Virus record (IMG/VR): IMGVR_UViG_3300047509_000125
Coordinates: 2,019-66,018 of that record
Origin: a virus
Lineage: Duplodnaviria > Caudoviricetes
Reading direction: 5' to 3' (one strand)
DNA length: 64,000 nt
The position numbers and the translations under genes were made by a program. Shown piece after piece: positions 12,805-41,803 of this stretch; within the stretch, counting starts at the first letter, position 1; each line of letters starts with the position of its first letter. The notes beneath the pieces were generated by a model, which saw nothing but the letters and a program-made list of their open reading frames with translations, had not been told where the DNA came from and ran no database searches.

Positions 12805-13848
12805 ATGCCTCCCCCGAATTTAGCCGTCGAACAATCAGACGATCTTAATCGCGCGATTGCGACAGCGGTTGCCAATCGGCCGCAGGGAGCCGCGCAACCT
12901 GCCCGAACAGTTCAGCCAACTGGCGCCGTTAGTGCCGCGCCAGCGACCGAACAATTTGCGGTTCCTCAACAGACCAGCGACCAACTGCGTTCAGGTCTAG
13001 ACACAAGAGCACTGATTTCCAGCGCGGTCAGCCGCAGACAAATGATCGAAAGCGGCGTCGATCCGGATGCGCCAGCGTTGTATCCGAGTCGTCAGAGACA
13101 ACGTGGCGGTGGTCCGAGCCGATGGGAACAACTGCAACAGGAGCACCGAGAGTTAGGGTCCGACATCGAACATTATTCGTTGCTGGAAGCGCGACAGAAT
13201 CACGAAAGTTATATTCAGAATCGAAACGCAGCCGCGGCACAGCAATTCTCAGGCATGGTTAACGAAATGGAACAGCTTACATCGCCAATCGGTTCAAAAG
13301 AGCACGCCAAAGATGTGCTGGCGATTGCGGCGAAATATCCGGTGGGAGCGATGAGCACGGCTGGCCGGGAATTACTGCAACGACATTCGACGATGCACGA
13401 TTCGACGGCCGAATTACTCGATCAGATTCACCAAGCGTATCCGGAGCTGAAACTGAAACCTTCGCATATCGGGCCGGGAGGCGTGTCGTGGACGGTGGAC
13501 AAGCCTACTGACGAGCCCGCTGGAGCCGACAAACGTCGTTATTCACGGTTACAAGCCTCGATTGAGCAGCACAAAACTCAAGCCGCAGCCGAAGCGCAGA
13601 CTAACCGCAAAGCCGGACAAGAGAACGTCCCTTACAGCCAATCAGCGGAATGGGCTGGCGACCAAGCTGAACTCAAAGCGTTGGAGCAACAGTATCCGTC
13701 ACTACGTCCGGCGCCGCCGGCGGGCAAAGAAGCTGCGCCAACAGCTACTCCACCATCCTCGGATAAAGAAGTTACACGGATGACGAAGGATAACCGAAAA
13801 GCGGTATTCGATTCGGAAACGAAGAAGTTTTTGCGGTATGCCGAATGA
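12805..13848 (+). CDS. Putative internal virion/ejection protein
   Basis: A/Q-rich helical protein directly before the giant protein. Confidence 0.55.
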   Translation: MPPPNLAVEQSDDLNRAIATAVANRPQGAAQPARTVQPTGAVSAAPATEQFAVPQQTSDQLRSGLDTRALISSAVSRRQMIESGVDPDAPALYPSRQRQRGGGPSRWEQLQQEHRELGSDIEHYSLLEARQNHESYIQNRNAAAAQQFSGMVNEMEQLTSPIGSKEHAKDVLAIAAKYPVGAMSTAGRELLQRHSTMHDSTAELLDQIHQAYPELKLKPSHIGPGGVSWTVDKPTDEPAGADKRRYSRLQASIEQHKTQAAAEAQTNRKAGQENVPYSQSAEWAGDQAELKALEQQYPSLRPAPPAGKEAAPTATPPSSDKEVTRMTKDNRKAVFDSETKKFLRYAE

Positions 13849-16800
13849 GCCGACCTGGGAGACCACAACCGAAGAAGCCCCAACGTGGGACGCGACTACC
13901 GGGCCTGAGAGCCAGTCACGCAGGAGCACTTACGATCCAAACAAACTGCCGCCAGTTGGCGTAGCTGGGGTCGATATTACTCCGCCGCCGTCACCGGAAG
14001 TGATGGATCAACCGATTGTTTCGGTGCCGAAAATTGGAGAGATAGGTGGACAAAAGTCCGCACTTGCCCAAGTGGGAGCTGGCATTGTCAACACAGCCGC
14101 CAGAGCCGCAGAGGGGCTCGAGAGCGGAACCAATATCGCGCTTGCGCCAATCTTGGCGATGCCGGGTGTCGGTCGTGTTGCGGGCGCCGCGTTCGGTGTT
14201 CAACAATTCGCGGATGTTTCCGACGCGATCAAGGAAGCTCGTGCGCCGGGGAGAACGATTCAGCAACGGACTGAGTCGGTCGGCCGCGGTCTAACCGATA
14301 TTTTATTTGGGATTCTCGGCGCTCGTTTTGCTGGCAAGGGCGTCGGAGAAGCAGCAAAACCAGGCGCCGCGGCTAAACCGGAAGTGGCAGCACCGGAAAC
14401 TGAAACGCCAACCACAGATGCAGTAACAAAGGAGGTGACAAACGATGCCGTCCAGCCAAGTGATGCACAAATACAAACAGGGCAAGCTCCACTCGGGGAG
14501 CAAGCACGGCCAGCAGGTGAAGTCCCACGAACAAGCGGTGGCGATAATGTTGAGCGAAAAACGTCAGGAGCAGAAGCAGGGAGGCCATTACCACCGGAAC
14601 GCGAGGCACCCACACAACAGCCGGTAGCACCGCCCCCTGCTCAGGTACAGGAGGTTCCTGCTTCAGAAATTGGTCGGTTAAGAGATTTACTCGGCGATCA
14701 GGTGCAAGGGCAAGCTGGCGGAATTCATGTGGTAATACGCAATAAGGAGGGAACACAAGTTAGGGCTATTTTCGTGGACAAGGATTTACCGACTAACGAG
14801 AAAGCTTCAATCGTTGAGCATGAACAAAGACACGCCCGGCTAGATCAGGATTCCTCGGCCCAGCGAAATGCTCAAGCAATCGTTGATGCGGTAAACGAAG
14901 ATCCCGCACGCGATCCGTATCTCCACGAATTTATTCAGGCCGTACGCAAAGCTGGCTATCCCGAAGATGAGATAGCAAAGGAACTAGTCGCTGAAGGTAT
15001 CTTGTCATTTGAACACCTGAGTTCTGATCTACGGGACATTCAGGCTGGAAAAGGAAACGCTGGTAGGCGCCACCTAGAAAATGTAGGAAGAAAGCGTGCC
15101 CAAGAAGAAATGGCGCATCCAGAACGCTTCATCGGTAACGTATTCGAACAGACAATTCCGCAATGGGCGCGCGACGAAATGGGTAGACGCGGTCTCTCAC
15201 CAGGGCGCACATTCAACGATGTAGATCTTGGAAATCCGAGCGTCCAAGAAGCGATAAGGCTTGATCCAACTCTAACAAACGAACAAAAATCCAGCCTACT
15301 GAGGATAGGCTCGCTGCCAGTTCCGGCCGTTCCGCAAGCCAAAGGGCAGGAACCGAAACCCGAACCGGCACCGGCCGTAACCCAGTTTGAAAATGTTCCA
15401 ACGGTTGAACTACCGATTGACCAAATCAAGCTGAGTAAGGATGTGCCTAACTTCAAAGAAGGCGCTTCGGCTGAGACCGGCGTTGTCCCGCAGGAACAGT
15501 TAGCCGGTAAATACACTCGCCTTGGCACTGGCGCTATCACAGTTTGGGAACGCGCCAACGGCGATAAAGAGATTATCAGCGGGCGGCACCGGCTGGATTT
15601 AGCCAAGCGGAGCGGGGAAAAGACGATACCAACACAGGTAGTTCGGGAAGCGGACGGCTTTACCCGCGCCCAGGCGATAACGTTTGACGCCGAAGCCAAT
15701 ATTCGGGATGGTCAAGGGTCGGTTTCCGACTATGCCAACTACTTCCGCAACTCGGACATCACGCCCGAAGAAGCATCCGGCCGAGGGCTTCTTGCGCGAG
15801 ACAAGGGCAGGAAGGGCTTCGCAATCGGCCGCAATGCCTCGGATGATCTCTACGCCCTCTATCGAGGCGGTAAGATTAATGAAACCCGAGCCGCCGCAAT
15901 AGCGGAAGCCGCACCGGGCCAGCCTGAGCTTCAGGGCGTCGGGATTCGAGCTGCGAACGAAGGCGCGTCTCCCGCCGAGATTGCCGGCCGAATCGAAGCG
16001 GCCTCAAATGCTGCGCGAAGTGAAGCGCCCGCCAAACAAGGCGACTTTTTCGCTGACACGTCACAGGACGAGATTTGGAAAAAACAGGGGCAGTACGTCT
16101 CTCAACAGCGCCGCGCTTTACAAGACGTAATCACGACTCGCCGCGCGATTGTAAACCGATATGAAGCAGCAACAGCAACGGGCTCAATCAAAGCGGAACG
16201 GAGCCGAGCGGAAACGGAATTGGCCGATGCTCAAGCCCAACTCCAACGGTGGCAAAATTGGGCGACCGATCCGGATCTCCGCACGCAGGTTGAAACTCTA
16301 GGCGCCGAAACCAAGGCGCCGGCTGCGGCAGAGCCACCCACACCACCCGAGCCAGCGGCAGCGGAGCCACAGTTACGCGCGGGTGAAGCGGGCACTGGCG
16401 ATCTGTTCCAAGGCGGCGACCAGCCGTTCAATCTGGCCGGCGAAACTGGCGTCGATTACGGCGCACAACAAAAAGCCGCCGAAGCTGCCGCGGCCGAGCG
16501 TGCCAAAACTGCCGCGGATCATCCGACACTGAATTTTGGTGAACCAGAAAACCAGCCCGAAGCGGTTGAAAACGGTGTTGCACCCGAGAAAACAGTAACG
16601 ATCGGATCAACCGAACCGCGGGCAAATGAGATCAGTCCACAAGCGTTAGGCGTCACTCATCCGATGCCGGGATTCATCAAGGAAATTGCAGATTACTTCG
16701 TCAATTTCACGCCCTCGCAAATTGCGAATAGTCTGCGAAGTTCAATCAAAGCCGCGCTTGGCGAGACCTTCGCCAAAACCACAATCGCCGATCGTGAATC

Positions 16801-19033
16801 GGGCGAACTTGGGGCGCGTTGGGTTTCAGCGCGAATCGCCGCGCCTCATTTGGCCGATTCGTTTGTAACGCAAGTGCTTGAGGGAACGAATGTCGATAAG
16901 ATCAAATTCGGTGCTGCGCTGACCGAAGATAATTTGCGTTCCGTTCGGGCAGCGGCGGAAACACCAGAAGCCGCACAAGCTGTTACTTCGATTATCGGCG
17001 CTAAAAATTCTCCATTTAAAACCGAAGCTGAATATCAAGCGTTTCTGAATGATCCAGGGACAGCAAAAGCGATTGAACGGCATCGCGCGTTATGGTCGGA
17101 AGTGATTGACCCGATGTTTCGAAAAGCGCAGCTGCTTGATCCAGACGTGGAACTGGCCTCCCGAGGCGAATCAAGCGGGGCGCGAATCAATTTGTTCAAC
17201 GATGCTGAAGGCCGTGGTGGCTCCATTGTTAGCGGAACCGCTACCGGCAACCTGACGGCGACGTTTCGGAGAAAATCGCCGTTTGCGATCAGAGCTAAAG
17301 GGACCGGGCAAAACTACAACATCAATTACTCAGACATCATGGCGAACACCTTTGGGCGCCAACTCGAGATTGCTGCCAAAAATGCATTCGAGCAAAGATT
17401 AGTGGATACGGGTAACGCCGTGATAGCAAAAGTCGGAGAGAAGCCGACGCTTCCAGATGGTGAAGACACGGTCGGATTTCCGCTTAAAAGAAAAAGCTCC
17501 GCAATCTTTACCAACGCCGAGGGCCAACCGCAAACCGTCCCGATCAATCAAAATATCTATGTCCGAAAGTCCATGGCTGGCGAATACCGACGCGGCGCCG
17601 ATGTCGATTTGATAAAGGTGCCTGGCGCGGTGAAAGCGTTTACCAACGCTGCAAACCGAGCCGCGCTTGCCGGTCTAACTGATGCCAGTGTTCACGTTCT
17701 TAATCTGAATACGGCGCTGCTGACGCGGCCATCAGTGACCGGCAGTCTCGTTGTCGATTCGCTGCTCTCTGCAACTGGCCGGGCCGATGTGCCCGTTATG
17801 CTCGCCAAAGTGCTCATCAAAGCGACCAAGGATAATCGGGCGCAAATGGCCGAGCTCGCCGAGATCGGGGCGTTACGTGGCGACAGACCAACAGCCAATC
17901 CACTCGGGAACGTAATCAAGTGGTACGATAAAACTACCCGGCTAATGCTCGATGACGCGTATCAGAGCATGAGGAAAAGCGGGTTGGTCGAAGACAGCGA
18001 AACTGCGCGTCGAGAATTTATCAATCAGGTCGGTCAATATAATAAGAGAGCGCAAGGCGATCTTAGGCGCCTCGCTCGAGATACTGGTCTTGGTCCATTC
18101 GTTACCGCCGGCACAACCTTCAACACTCTCGGGCTACGCACACTGATTCTCGATCCTGGGGTGAAAGCCGCGTCTCCGATGGCTGCGGCCGCGATGCGCG
18201 CGAACGTTCTTTCAAAGTGGGTCGGCGCGGCCGTGTTTATCGGAACCGCGAATTATCTACTTACTCACAACAAAGGCGGGGGAGTTATGGGTCGTCCCGG
18301 CGTACCGATTGGACGATTGGATAGCGGGCTCAATGACGAAAACGGTCGGCCGCTGTCCGTGCCGGTATTCGACATATTGGGTCTCGGCCGAGCGTTGCGG
18401 GTAACAGGGGCGCGCGGATTTATCGAGTCACAGCGCAAAGGTTTAACTCTGGCCAACTCGTTTGATGCCGCGGCTCGAGACGCGTTCAACACCAACATCA
18501 GTCCGTTCACCGGGCCACCGTTACGATTTCTCAGCGTGGGAGCGACCGGTTATCAGCCGGCGGTCTCCGTTGGGCGCGAGTCGCGCGTGGTCCCGCCAGG
18601 CCAAAGTCAGTGGCAAGAGAATATGAAACAAGCGGTGCTCGACGCCAATCCTCTACTTCGATCCTTGCAGCTCTCCCGAACTTCGGGTGAAGGCGTCCGA
18701 TCAGCCGTTCGCCAACAGATTCCGAGATTGTCGCTGCAACCGAGTCAATCGGCTGAATTTATGTCCAAGTATCCCGAAATCGTTCGCAAAGCGCAGGCGC
18801 GCGATTATGTGAACGACGTGATTGGACGGGCCAGGAAACTTAATCCACAGGACAAAGCTGCATTTGTTAAAGACGCACTTTCAAAACTGGCACCGGAAGA
18901 CCGCGACAACGCGATTCGAACGATGAAATATTCGCGGATTTTGGACAAAAACGATCCGGCATTTCGGGAGTCTGGCACACCCAAAGGCAGGACCGGCCGC
19001 AGCCTGTTGCGTCGTAACCGAACTGGTCGATGA
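13838..19033 (+). CDS. Large polyvalent internal virion/ejection protein (1731 aa) with HExxH zincin-like and ParB/Srx-like domains
   Basis: HEQRH at 14819-14833 plus ELVAE; IISGRHRLDLAKRSG ParB-like motif near 15570; A/P/E-rich linkers; helical C-terminus. Confidence 0.75.
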   Translation: MPNEPTWETTTEEAPTWDATTGPESQSRRSTYDPNKLPPVGVAGVDITPPPSPEVMDQPIVSVPKIGEIGGQKSALAQVGAGIVNTAARAAEGLESGTNIALAPILAMPGVGRVAGAAFGVQQFADVSDAIKEARAPGRTIQQRTESVGRGLTDILFGILGARFAGKGVGEAAKPGAAAKPEVAAPETETPTTDAVTKEVTNDAVQPSDAQIQTGQAPLGEQARPAGEVPRTSGGDNVERKTSGAEAGRPLPPEREAPTQQPVAPPPAQVQEVPASEIGRLRDLLGDQVQGQAGGIHVVIRNKEGTQVRAIFVDKDLPTNEKASIVEHEQRHARLDQDSSAQRNAQAIVDAVNEDPARDPYLHEFIQAVRKAGYPEDEIAKELVAEGILSFEHLSSDLRDIQAGKGNAGRRHLENVGRKRAQEEMAHPERFIGNVFEQTIPQWARDEMGRRGLSPGRTFNDVDLGNPSVQEAIRLDPTLTNEQKSSLLRIGSLPVPAVPQAKGQEPKPEPAPAVTQFENVPTVELPIDQIKLSKDVPNFKEGASAETGVVPQEQLAGKYTRLGTGAITVWERANGDKEIISGRHRLDLAKRSGEKTIPTQVVREADGFTRAQAITFDAEANIRDGQGSVSDYANYFRNSDITPEEASGRGLLARDKGRKGFAIGRNASDDLYALYRGGKINETRAAAIAEAAPGQPELQGVGIRAANEGASPAEIAGRIEAASNAARSEAPAKQGDFFADTSQDEIWKKQGQYVSQQRRALQDVITTRRAIVNRYEAATATGSIKAERSRAETELADAQAQLQRWQNWATDPDLRTQVETLGAETKAPAAAEPPTPPEPAAAEPQLRAGEAGTGDLFQGGDQPFNLAGETGVDYGAQQKAAEAAAAERAKTAADHPTLNFGEPENQPEAVENGVAPEKTVTIGSTEPRANEISPQALGVTHPMPGFIKEIADYFVNFTPSQIANSLRSSIKAALGETFAKTTIADRESGELGARWVSARIAAPHLADSFVTQVLEGTNVDKIKFGAALTEDNLRSVRAAAETPEAAQAVTSIIGAKNSPFKTEAEYQAFLNDPGTAKAIERHRALWSEVIDPMFRKAQLLDPDVELASRGESSGARINLFNDAEGRGGSIVSGTATGNLTATFRRKSPFAIRAKGTGQNYNINYSDIMANTFGRQLEIAAKNAFEQRLVDTGNAVIAKVGEKPTLPDGEDTVGFPLKRKSSAIFTNAEGQPQTVPINQNIYVRKSMAGEYRRGADVDLIKVPGAVKAFTNAANRAALAGLTDASVHVLNLNTALLTRPSVTGSLVVDSLLSATGRADVPVMLAKVLIKATKDNRAQMAELAEIGALRGDRPTANPLGNVIKWYDKTTRLMLDDAYQSMRKSGLVEDSETARREFINQVGQYNKRAQGDLRRLARDTGLGPFVTAGTTFNTLGLRTLILDPGVKAASPMAAAAMRANVLSKWVGAAVFIGTANYLLTHNKGGGVMGRPGVPIGRLDSGLNDENGRPLSVPVFDILGLGRALRVTGARGFIESQRKGLTLANSFDAAARDAFNTNISPFTGPPLRFLSVGATGYQPAVSVGRESRVVPPGQSQWQENMKQAVLDANPLLRSLQLSRTSGEGVRSAVRQQIPRLSLQPSQSAEFMSKYPEIVRKAQARDYVNDVIGRARKLNPQDKAAFVKDALSKLAPEDRDNAIRTMKYSRILDKNDPAFRESGTPKGRTGRSLLRRNRTGR
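14445..14627 (+). CDS. Nested out-of-frame gene, DUF6496-like small basic protein
   Basis: SD AAGGAGGTGA at 14429-14438, 6 nt before ATG; VMHKYKQGKLHSGS...VKSHEQAVAIMLSE. Confidence 0.75.
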   Translation: MPSSQVMHKYKQGKLHSGSKHGQQVKSHEQAVAIMLSEKRQEQKQGGHYHRNARHPHNSR

Positions 19034-19106: not shown

Positions 19107-19529
19107 GTGAACATCATTATCAAAGTCATTCCTGAATCTGAACAGCGGCCGGAAGTAAACGGCGCTGATTGGTTTTTTGATGAGAATGCAGATTTACAGG
19201 TACGGGTATCGCCGATGAGCGATTGGAGGTATGAAACACTACTTGCCATTCACGAAGCGGTTGAAGCGATCATGTGTAAGCATAACGGCGTCACCGTCGA
19301 AGCGGTTGATGCCTTCGATCAGGAGTACGATAAAACTCACACGTTCGACGTGAATGCCGGGGATGAACCGAATGCGCCATACATGCGCGAACATTGCCTT
19401 GCAACAGCCATCGAGCGAATCTTGTGCGCCGAACTCGACGTAAATTGGGCTGAGTATGATCGTGAATTGGCTGAATCGTATCCAGGGCCGTCGAAGAAAA
19501 TGATTCCGGTCAATTATCCCGGTGTATGA
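19107..19529 (+). CDS. Zincin-like HExxE metal-binding protein
   Basis: LLAIHEAVEAIMC and PYMREHCLATAIE; ATGA-coupled to the ATP-grasp gene. Confidence 0.6.
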   Translation: MNIIIKVIPESEQRPEVNGADWFFDENADLQVRVSPMSDWRYETLLAIHEAVEAIMCKHNGVTVEAVDAFDQEYDKTHTFDVNAGDEPNAPYMREHCLATAIERILCAELDVNWAEYDRELAESYPGPSKKMIPVNYPGV

Positions 19530-20827
19530 AGGACGCCAAAGAAGTCGTAGCCTGCGTGATCGACTACGGCTACTTTATCTCGTTAGCCGACAAGCTCTCT
19601 GAAACTTTCGACACGGTTTACTATTATAGCCCGTTCGAGCACGAGTATCTGAATCTGAACGATTGTGTTGTTGGTGACGGTCTGGATCGAGTCGAACGGA
19701 TGGACGAGTTTTTCGCGCCTGAGATATTTGACACGATTGACCTGTTCATATTTCCGGACATAGGGTTTGCACCACTACAGCAGCATTTACGCTCGTTAGG
19801 TAAAGCGGTTTGGGGATCGTTTGAAACCACCGAACTGGAAATGGTTCGAACCAAGTTTTTGGAAGTAATGAAAGAACTGGGATTGCCATTAGCCAAGCAT
19901 ACGATCGCGGAAGGTATAACAGAACTGGCTGACCATCTTCGGAAGGTCGATGACAAGTGGATCAAGATAGATCGTTACCGCGGGGTCATGGAAACATGGC
20001 ATCACCGGGATTGGCAGCACAGCGAACGTGAACTGGAGCGATTGGCTCTCACTCTAGGGGCAGCTAAAGAGTACGTGACCTTTGTCATTCAAGACCCAAT
20101 TCCAACTGACATTGAGTTAGGATACGACGGGTGGTGCGTTGACGGCGAGTTTCCGTTTTCTTCTTTTCAGGGATACGAAAATAAGAATGAACTTTACATC
20201 GGCGCCCTAAAGAAATATTCGGACATTCCCAAAGAAATCCAGATGGTTAACGAGGCGTTCGATCCGATTTTAACCAAAGCCGGCTACCGGAACTTTCTAG
20301 CAACTGAAGTTAGGATAAAAGATAAGGAGCCATACTTTATTGACCCGACGTTTCGAATGCCTGGACAGACTGGCGAACAACTGTTGGAGACATGCTCCAA
20401 TCTTGCTGACGTGGTTTGGCACGGCGCCAACGGGCAAGTATTAGAGCCGAAGTTCAAATACAAGTTTTCGGTGAGTGCCACGCTGCATTACGACGCTTTG
20501 CCGGCCGATCAGTGGCGAGTACTCAATGTTCCCGAGAAAGTTAGGCAATGGGTGAAACTGATGTACTACTGCCAGATTAATGACGTGTTCCATATCATCC
20601 CGAGTTTGAAGGACGAAGTCGGAGTGGTGCTTGGGGTTGGTAACACGATTCAAGAGACATTCGCTCATCTAAAAAAGAACTTGGACATTCTCTCGGTGGA
20701 ACCAATTTCCTGTCAGTTAGATGGATTTTTTGATTTGCTTGATTCAATTCGCGCGGCCGAAAAGCGCGGGATGAAATTCAGTGACCAACGTACTCCGACC
20801 GATCAGGAAATACTGAAGTTAATGTAA
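19526..20827 (+). CDS. ATP-grasp ligase, divergent PurD/GAR-synthetase-like
   Basis: Rossmann-like N-terminus (DLFIFPD, VWGS..TELEM.R), WIK, FVIQ..I...E, GYE.K, IDPTFRMP resembling PurD EFNxRFG. Confidence 0.7.
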   Translation: MKDAKEVVACVIDYGYFISLADKLSETFDTVYYYSPFEHEYLNLNDCVVGDGLDRVERMDEFFAPEIFDTIDLFIFPDIGFAPLQQHLRSLGKAVWGSFETTELEMVRTKFLEVMKELGLPLAKHTIAEGITELADHLRKVDDKWIKIDRYRGVMETWHHRDWQHSERELERLALTLGAAKEYVTFVIQDPIPTDIELGYDGWCVDGEFPFSSFQGYENKNELYIGALKKYSDIPKEIQMVNEAFDPILTKAGYRNFLATEVRIKDKEPYFIDPTFRMPGQTGEQLLETCSNLADVVWHGANGQVLEPKFKYKFSVSATLHYDALPADQWRVLNVPEKVRQWVKLMYYCQINDVFHIIPSLKDEVGVVLGVGNTIQETFAHLKKNLDILSVEPISCQLDGFFDLLDSIRAAEKRGMKFSDQRTPTDQEILKLM

Positions 20828-40892: not shown

Positions 40893-41126
40893 ATGAAGCT
40901 CCTGATTCTACAGGGGGCACTTTTCACGATTATAGGTGCCCTTACCCCGGTAGTGACAACGTTAGGCAGCGACAGCCCGATAACTCAGCGCACGATCGTA
41001 GTTATAGTCGTGGGAGGCATCTTGTCCGGCTGTAATAGTCTCAAAAGTTTTTTGAGCACTACATACGGAGATTCGCAGGCTAATCCCCGGAATCAACATC
41101 CGCCAGAGCCGCCAAAGTGGCCATGA
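40893..41126 (+). CDS. Putative holin
   Basis: Small protein with two TM helices; TTGACA at 40855 upstream. Confidence 0.55.
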   Translation: MKLLILQGALFTIIGALTPVVTTLGSDSPITQRTIVVIVVGGILSGCNSLKSFLSTTYGDSQANPRNQHPPEPPKWP

Positions 41127-41803
41127 CAGCTTGCGTTTATAGTATTCTGAATCTGCTTAACGGTCATCGTTATATCGGCAGCGCCAAAAACTTCAGGAAG
41201 CGAAAATGGGCACATACCTCCATGTTGAATTGCGGCACGCATCCGAATATCAAGCTTCAGCGCGCATGGAGAAAGTACGGCTCATCCGCATTTCGGTTCG
41301 TTGTCCTAAGTGTAATTCGGTGCATGGACAATCTCCTAGAATCGGAGCAGGCATGGCTGGACGGATACGATCCTGAATATAACATCGCCAAGTCCTCTAC
41401 GGCGCCAATGCGAGGCAGATTGCATAGCGAAGACACGAAACTCCGAATAAGCCTGTTCTGGAGGGGTAAGACGCGTTCCAAAGAAACTCGCCGGAAAATG
41501 AGCGAGGCTAATCTAGGTAAGGTTTATTCGTCGGAAACACTCGCCCGAATGAGTGCTGCGCAAAAAGGCAAGAAACAATCGCCAGAGTTGATAGAGAAGA
41601 AGCGCCAAGGAAATTTGCGGTATTGGAAGGATCACAAACATTCTCGATTATCTCTAACCTGCAAAAATCCGAAGTGCGGAAAAGTGTTCGAACGCCTGCC
41701 TTGTCAATTAACTCACCCTAACTCCGGTAGCTTCTGTTCTGTTTCGTGCCGAGGCCAAGTGATTGGCTGTCGGCCTTGGCAGAAAGTTCAAATAGAAAAC
41801 TAA
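41117..41803 (+). CDS. Free-standing GIY-YIG homing endonuclease with NUMOD3 repeats and C-terminal Zn motif
   Basis: CVYSI.N..NG..YIGS...R...H...L, EQ.WLD, YNI, HSEDTK.RIS / SKETRRKMSEA. Confidence 0.9.
   Translation: MAMTACVYSILNLLNGHRYIGSAKNFRKRKWAHTSMLNCGTHPNIKLQRAWRKYGSSAFRFVVLSVIRCMDNLLESEQAWLDGYDPEYNIAKSSTAPMRGRLHSEDTKLRISLFWRGKTRSKETRRKMSEANLGKVYSSETLARMSAAQKGKKQSPELIEKKRQGNLRYWKDHKHSRLSLTCKNPKCGKVFERLPCQLTHPNSGSFCSVSCRGQVIGCRPWQKVQIEN

Follow-up and report, generated by a model that had tools for sequence, protein, structure and literature searches.

The DNA analysed here, which we call the window, is a stretch of 64,000 nucleotides (nt) from the genome of an uncultured tailed phage (IMG/VR record IMGVR_UViG_3300047509_000125, 66,018 bp in full), and all positions given are window positions. 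Inside a large open reading frame (ORF) of this phage, whose 1731-amino-acid (aa) product we call P0002, lies a complete small gene of the DUF6496 family (Pfam PF20106), read in another frame and encoding a protein of 60 aa (P0001). We propose, with a probability of about three in four, that positions 14444-14629 encode two proteins at once: a linker of the large protein and an older DUF6496 gene that the large gene has engulfed. The features on which this proposal rests are the following.

14429..14438, plus strand: Shine-Dalgarno (SD)-like motif AAGGAGGTGA, followed by a 6-nt spacer (CAAACG) and by the ATG at 14445
14436..14438, plus strand: TGA stop in the frame of the small gene, two codons 5' of its ATG (the frame reads ...stop-QRR-stop-QTMPSS)
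14445..14627, plus strand: nested DUF6496 gene (P0001, 60 aa), shifted to the +1 frame of the host ORF; the coordinates include the TAG stop
13838..19033, plus strand: host ORF (P0002, 1731 aa), a large multi-part protein in a virion-gene region
14444..14629, plus strand: host-frame reading of the overlap (P0002 residues 203-264), a hydrophobic-poor linker rich in P, E, Q, G and A (by composition and alignment A3)

The nested gene and its start signal

P0001 matches PF20106 with an E-value of 7.4e-9 and 36.3 bits, to be compared with a curated gathering cut-off of 24 bits, and its residues 5-42 align with positions 12-50 of the 58 of the profile. An earlier annotation of this DNA, made from the sequence alone (the first-pass annotation), had named this family, and correctly so. 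When the whole 66,018-bp record was searched in six frames with PF20106, the nested locus was the only match (E 7e-10, 35.9 bits). A word-indexed search of 5.8 billion proteins at E <= 0.01 retrieved 640 small relatives of P0001; the 120 listed are 48-79 aa long and nearly all carry PF20106, with local BLASTP identities to P0001 of up to 82% among the relatives listed. Once aligned (alignment A2), these 120 small proteins are 52-75% identical to P0001, which keeps all 14 invariant columns of the 121-sequence alignment (M1, P2, L15, S17, G18, K20, G22, V25, Q30, A33, I34, S37, E38 and R40) and starts with the family's own N-terminus, MPSSQVMH. In ESM Atlas it falls in DUF6496 clusters, which are mostly viral. 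The alignment-based AlphaFold2 (AF2) model of P0001 has a mean predicted local distance difference test (pLDDT) score of 84 and consists of a helix (residues 3-12), a hairpin, a second helix (28-45) and a loose tail, and this helix-hairpin-helix core is common to its homologues. The closest folds in BFVD are exclusively uncharacterised phage homologues (template modelling scores of 0.6-0.67, 38-51% identity). P0001 thus resembles the phage subfamily of PF20106 (MPSSxVMHK...KQAVAIMLSEKR) in score, size, invariant residues and predicted core. The difference lies in its surroundings: members of the family mostly stand alone, or in some cases form N-terminal domains, whereas the copy in the window is wholly inside another gene. 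We regard this homology, which goes beyond what chance produces in a sequence of this kind, as the decisive evidence for a nested gene.

The ORF itself is as the first-pass annotation described it. The distance between the two starts (14445-13838) is 607 bases, which leaves a remainder of 1 when divided by three and places the small ORF in the +1 frame; the motif AAGGAGGTGA stands 6 nt before its ATG; and the product is basic (isoelectric point 10.5, with 11 K+R, 3 D+E and 8 H). Since the TGA at 14436-14438 closes the small frame just upstream, the small ORF can start no earlier, and entry into this frame from far upstream is ruled out. Neither the length of the ORF nor the core of the motif would be conspicuous alone. 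Alternative-frame ORFs of 40-219 aa are numerous between 10 and 19 kb, AGGAGG occurs 21 times in the window (21.2 expected), and exact GGAGGTGA occurs four times, at chance, as do the counts with one mismatch. Ahead of gene starts the motif is rare: AAGGAGGTGA is the sole 10-nt complement of the anti-SD sequence upstream of any of the 50 starts examined, matches at all 49 other putative gene starts do not exceed 5 nt, and GGAGG, AGGAG or GAGGT lies near a candidate start in only 7 of the 57 plus-strand ORFs, in line with the earlier remark that strong SD motifs are rare in the window. The other gene starts of the phage are nearly devoid of SD motifs and their upstream regions are often A-rich; the host bacterium may make little use of SD pairing, with the perfect 10-nt motif of the nested gene as an exception. 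Promoter-like sites, terminator-like sites and Rfam matches were looked for between 13.5 and 15.5 kb and none was found, which fits internal initiation on a long messenger RNA.

As had been anticipated for gene callers, the small gene was missed. The public gene call of the record contains the large ORF, in a version that starts at M56 of P0002 (P0003, 1676 aa), and lacks the nested one; P0001 finds no match to itself among its 640 small relatives, and the nested ORF is therefore uncalled in the public record.

Recurrence of the layout and conservation of the two frames

DUF6496 matches number 171 in IMG/VR and 366 in metagenome contigs of the Joint Genome Institute. From each set we kept 80, which gave 160 loci with 120 distinct sequences. 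Most of these (113 of 120) are not nested, consistent with the earlier statement that DUF6496 is usually a stand-alone gene. In six further contigs of uncultured phages, designated by their locus numbers, an intact DUF6496 ORF lies wholly inside a longer ORF of the same strand, with the frame relation seen in the window.

L015: host ORF of 614 aa; GGAGGTGA 5 nt upstream of the start
L026: host ORF of 1352 aa; GGGGGTG 5 nt upstream of the start, with a TGA two codons before the ATG, as in the window
L083: host ORF of about 2004 aa; GGAGGTGA 5 nt upstream of the start
L091: host ORF of 1403 aa; AAAGGAGAG before the start
L101: host ORF of at least 849 aa (it reaches the contig end); GTG start with GGAGGTGA 5 nt upstream
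L090: host ORF of 304 aa, ending 62 codons after the small gene; only AAAAGGA before the start

The start codon is kept in all six (ATG, or GTG in L101) and a GGAG-type motif in five. A spacer of 6 nt in the window, as against 5 nt in L015, L026, L083 and L101, changes the phase of the motif, which the host frame therefore translates as K-E-V instead of G-G-D/E. A motif kept in different host-frame phases points to selection on nucleotides rather than on host residues. Outside the overlap the seven hosts are nearly unrelated, with few exceptions: L091 and L101 are 56-66% identical downstream of it, and L015, L083, L091 and L101 have upstream genes in common (30-57% identity). The only other gene that the window shares with the nested-gene loci encodes a 433-aa protein, at 19526-20827 in the window and 10382-11689 in L015 (36% identity, E 2.5e-85), just downstream of the host gene in both.

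Because the searches returned no near relatives of the window phage, we compared per frame the seven nested copies found in different phages, over the first 45 codons, which align without gaps. By codon position of the small gene, 22, 22 and 38 of 45 columns are variable and the summed pairwise differences are 223, 194 and 437; the second position of the small gene, which is the wobble position of the host frame, is the least variable by summed differences, although it should be the most variable were the host frame the only constraint. Differences thus peak at the wobble position of the small gene and are lowest at that of the host, which makes the small frame the main constraint. Identities among the seven copies agree with this (64-78% for the small protein vs 30-57% for the host-frame reading). 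Pairs of copies differ at 32-51 of 135 bases, and all seven keep the start, at least 55 open codons and the conserved residues. In simulations where only the host frame was kept open, the small start and 55 open codons survived in 13, 8, 5 and 4% of cases, per lineage, at 20, 25, 30 and 35% divergence. The first-pass annotation had named stops accumulating in the +1 frame of relatives as a result that would speak against it; the small frame is instead intact in all seven nested copies. We conclude from these substitution patterns that the small frame is under purifying selection. The host frame is not open by default either: among 68 distinct viral copies, the +2 frame of the small gene, which is the host frame, runs through the entire small ORF without a stop in three, two of which are nested, whereas it is open in seven of seven members of the nested group. 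The gene of the window shows the marks of an embedded architecture, namely a nested small ORF with its own start signal and conservation of both frames among relatives. Taken with the six further contigs, the selection on the small frame supports the claim of a true dual-coding region. When set against other pairs of equal protein distance, the first three nested copies show few synonymous differences among themselves and fall in the low tail (fractions 0.006-0.07), which may reflect younger common ancestry or an extra constraint from the second frame.

The layout may extend well beyond these contigs. From alignment A3 (the window and six other hosts) we built a profile of the overlap as read in the host frame and searched 1.84 billion representative proteins, obtaining 50 matches at E <= 1e-3, of which 20 at E <= 1e-10. 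Thirty-three of the 50 are at least 300 aa long, the longest reaching 4571 aa, and 31 of these 33 could encode, in the +1 frame, 22-25 of the 25 near-invariant DUF6496 residues; the best score elsewhere in the same long proteins is 11-15 of 25. The 31 compatible proteins include P0003 of the window and the hosts of L090 and L026. The same hidden gene is thus probably present in about 30 clusters of large phage proteins. With the same profile, a scan of IMG/VR returned only L026 and L015 again. A scan of genome_contigs yielded only two contigs of metagenome-assembled genomes. The proteins themselves are diverse. A Pfam scan of 29 long hosts left 22 with no match at E <= 1e-5. Pfam and PHROG matches among the hosts include pyridine-nucleotide oxidoreductase (three proteins), HATPase_c and glucosaminidase domains; the 4571-aa host carries a Strawberry-notch-type helicase and an InPase domain, the L026 host a DarB-like antirestriction region (residues 573-844, E 4.5e-13) and the L091 host a region resembling the ribonucleotide reductase large subunit (residues 385-690, E 6.9e-22).

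The host protein, the origin of the nesting and alternative explanations

The overlap had been described as a disordered linker of an ejection protein. The linker stands as far as composition goes: residues 203-264 of P0002 contain 11% hydrophobic residues vs 25% in the rest of the protein, and 77% of P, E, Q, G, A, T, S and D vs 58%. The label of ejection protein found no backing, since P0002 has no match in Pfam (E <= 1), in NCBIfam or among PDB sequences, and its best family signal, to the ParB-like partition protein phrog_3264, is weak (E 0.041). Relatives of P0002 cover one of two regions and never the N-terminal 500 residues.

15407..16279, plus strand: P0002 residues 524-814, conserved (41% identity to P0005), with the weak ParB-like signal (phrog_3264, E 0.041)
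16715..18943, plus strand: P0002 residues 960-1702, conserved C-terminal region (47% identity to P0004, 27% to P0006)

The AF2 model of residues 950-1731 (pLDDT 55.6) is too poor for a fold search. ORFs downstream of the host gene match virion structural, tail-fibre, beta-helix and PKD families, and the host gene is therefore placed in a virion-gene region; genes for portal, terminase or capsid proteins were not recognised anywhere in the window. Close relatives of the phage, or of the N-terminal part of P0002, were sought by blastn against phages and by a pattern scan of IMG/VR with P0002, and neither gave a match.

The beginnings of the hosts have a feature of their own. In the window (13838-13960) the N-terminus carries a short motif, PTWE/PTWD, repeated two or three times, and other hosts have N-terminal repeats of SPYDALL (L083, L090), DPNQDFIDAV (L091) or FNPFGD.PIG (L101). 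A TP[AE]TD motif follows in the hosts of L015, L083, L091 and L101, and a Gly/Ala-rich hydrophobic stretch comes next in all of these hosts (L083, L090, L091, L101 and L015), including that of the window. The hosts may share an N-terminal module too diverged for BLAST.

How did one gene come to lie inside another? The seven nested copies group together in a DNA tree built from the 120 distinct sequences (135 nt each), with a Shimodaira-Hasegawa-like approximate likelihood ratio test support of 99, and the nested state requires a single change (0 of 500 shuffles reached so low a number). The family reaches far beyond this group and also occurs as a stand-alone gene in several contexts and as an N-terminal domain, which argues that the small gene is the older of the two. 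The proposal of the first-pass annotation, that the large gene grew by reading through a pre-existing small gene, is supported by the breadth of the family, by the poor conservation of the host frame and by the existence of partly overlapped forms (L040 and L041; L090), and the data are compatible with one such origin or several. In L040 (7742-8225) and L041 (152-635), the upstream ORF, in the frame of the hosts, stops about 190 nt into the DUF6496 gene, a possible intermediate between the separate and the nested layouts. Under this proposal the small gene would once have stood alone, next to a gene that encoded the N-terminal portion of the large protein, and would have been absorbed once the upstream frame extended through it to reach cargo domains further downstream. 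Today a single late messenger RNA would carry both frames. Ribosomes starting at 13838 would read through, the overlap serving as a flexible, hydrophobic-poor linker between domains, and ribosomes captured by the internal AAGGAGGTGA would start at the ATG at 14445 and make a free-standing, basic 60-aa protein.

Several observations weigh against this account. A protein tree, poorly resolved (45 columns, three supported branches), needs four changes and shows no single nested clade, and host-frame constraints shared by the nested copies could have drawn their sequences together in the DNA tree; the nested label is still clustered on the protein tree (0 of 500 shuffles as low). Since the hosts are barely alike outside the overlap, some of the divergence of the small gene may predate the nesting, in which case the wobble pattern may partly record an earlier stand-alone history. 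Even with several origins, the fact that starts, SD motifs and ORFs are intact in the seven copies would remain an argument for function. Codon usage is atypical within the overlap in either frame. The log-odds per 183 nt are +10 to +20 for the host frame upstream and positive downstream, but only about -3 to -5 across the overlap; those of the small frame climb from about -20 to -34 outside to about -5 to -6 within it. For the overlap itself the scores are -3.5 (host frame) and -6.4 (small frame). SD motifs are hardly used by the other genes of the phage, and the motif could be less important than it looks. The sequencing runs that contain the stretch amount to one soil DNA run, perhaps its source, with no RNA run listed, and the 28 further host proteins were assessed at the protein level, not from their DNA.

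Some of these points would suit an engulfed relic, in which a recently absorbed DUF6496 gene is untranslated, the large protein is the sole product and the small frame has simply not had time to decay. Nearly unrelated flanks in the seven hosts would allow repeated and recent nesting, and both the scattering of the nested copies on the protein tree and the scarcity of SD motifs in the rest of the phage would be expected. We consider this improbable: copies as diverged as these have kept start, reading frame and conserved residues where the simulation predicts survival in a small minority of lineages, their differences peak at the wobble position of the small gene, and the SD motif of the window is kept in a different host-frame phase.

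Even less probable, in our estimation, is that the large ORF is not one protein and that its frame is open across the small gene by chance; the DUF6496 gene would then separate two functional units, an N-terminal protein and a downstream protein with a start of its own. The drop in host-frame coding potential, the relatives of P0002 that share its residues 524-814 or 960-1702 and never its N-terminal part, and the short host of L090 could all be read in this way. Against it, 1731 codons follow one another with no stop, so that any ribosome starting at 13838 reads through; the frame is open throughout the nested group and rarely outside it; and the linker is embedded in 31 long proteins. A programmed frameshift or an assembly error, by which DUF6496 would really share one reading frame with the N-terminal portion of the large protein, can find some comfort in the existence of in-frame DUF6496 fusions, although these always have DUF6496 at the N-terminus, and is scarcely credible given the TGA two codons before the ATG in the window and in L026, an ORF that begins with the family's own N-terminus, the lack of homopolymer runs of 6 or more in 13838-14300, the same layout in six contigs from other samples and, for an assembly error, the need for two compensating indels. 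All three alternatives are less likely than a dual-coding region in view of the recurrence of the layout, of the stop that precedes the ATG and of the way in which the substitutions are distributed.

Parallels, function and neighbouring observations

Overprinted genes are classically known from phiX174, where B lies in A and E in D: both frames are coding, and the nested gene is regarded as the younger, arisen de novo. Here the ages would be reversed, the nested DUF6496 gene belonging to an older, widespread family and the host-frame reading being the younger. If so, the window offers a clear example from nature of an old frame nested within a newer, longer one. It would also make it practicable to study how giant mosaic phage proteins grow when adjacent genes become fused across one that lies between them. 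The two frames can be separated by single changes: T14446C turns the ATG of the small gene into ACG and is silent in the host (GAT to GAC). Annotation pipelines, for their part, probably lose the nested DUF6496 gene systematically.

By analogy of layout, the closest described parallel is the Rz1 gene of phage lambda, in the +1 frame of Rz. According to the sections of the spanin survey drawn on here (PMC6139136), 182 of 528 two-component spanin systems are embedded in this manner, and an origin of such genes by loss of an upstream stop codon is discussed. The likeness lies in a small gene fully inside a larger one, with its own start and often missed by gene callers. In spanins, however, the two products are partners in one complex and, in the same sections, no family spans embedded and other architectures (PMC6139136). 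DUF6496, unlike the spanins, is one family found stand-alone, fused and nested, in hosts that are mutually unrelated, and we make no claim that the nested and the host product are partners.

The hosts recall a different class, the polyvalent proteins of phages and conjugative elements. These are described, in the parts of the source considered (Iyer et al. 2017, PMC5512222), as large multi-domain proteins with swappable enzymatic domains, encoded among late or virion genes, and ParB-type domains are typical of them. Several DUF6496 hosts outside the window match this make-up through their DarB-like, ribonucleotide-reductase-like, helicase and glucosaminidase regions. P0002, with its weak ParB-like match (E 0.041), is at most a candidate member. 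Genes nested in linkers are not mentioned in those parts of the description (PMC5512222).

This likeness leads us to a speculation that we think is unlikely to hold as it stands: the DUF6496 gene and the linker written over it might form a conserved cassette of about 180 bp that acts as a homology patch for swapping downstream cargo domains behind a common N-terminal module, always supplying the same basic partner. Were it true, the cassette would be the only segment common to otherwise unrelated giant cargo proteins, the small partner would be needed by them, e.g., for packaging or for action after injection, and DUF6496 would accompany a whole class of polyvalent virion proteins as an obligatory but hidden gene.

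Soil phages commonly encode DUF6496. Searches with P0001 for a hint at its function gave nothing useful among PDB sequences (best E 0.38), in fold comparisons (Foldseek against PDB, best E 5.1; VIA wide, best Z 3.2) or in NCBIfam, where it had no match; PHROGs returned two families of unknown function only (E about 0.01), and a search of a literature library found no publication naming DUF6496 or PF20106. We considered inferring a role from the neighbours of the stand-alone phage genes and abandoned this route: the gene precedes that for the portal, follows that for the terminase or sits between those for primase and DNA polymerase, and contexts so different indicate no role. Tentatively, P0001 might be a nucleic-acid-binding or virion-associated accessory protein made together with the late proteins. 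A DNA-condensing or core protein, as suggested in the first-pass annotation, is a guess to which neither fold nor family points.

Other forms of the family were seen along the way. DUF6496 also occurs as an in-frame N-terminal domain of proteins of about 300 aa, and six of these (P0136, P0137, P0142, P0143, P0145 and P0148) share a recurrent architecture in which it precedes a linker rich in Met, Pro and Gly and, at the C-terminus, a conserved domain of about 150 aa; the other parts of these fusions have no Pfam or PHROG match. An identical DUF6496 gene from three samples (L004, 2764-2913; L005 and L006, 8001-8150) has TAG in frame as its codon 30, at a position where Gln is invariant in the family, so that either TAG is read as Gln in that phage or the copies share a nonsense mutation. 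In L097 (4946-6055) and L123 (5747-7024), an open span of 1.1-1.3 kb, which lies in the +1 frame as seen from DUF6496, extends over the small gene and on into a region rich in Cys (CPDCGAE); as such a span need not be a gene, L097/L098 and L123 were left out of the count of nested copies. Finally, far from the nested gene, the window contains at 41117-41803, between structural and recombination genes, an ORF with strong matches to homing endonucleases (phrog_314, E 5.7e-31; GIY-YIG/HNH-type).

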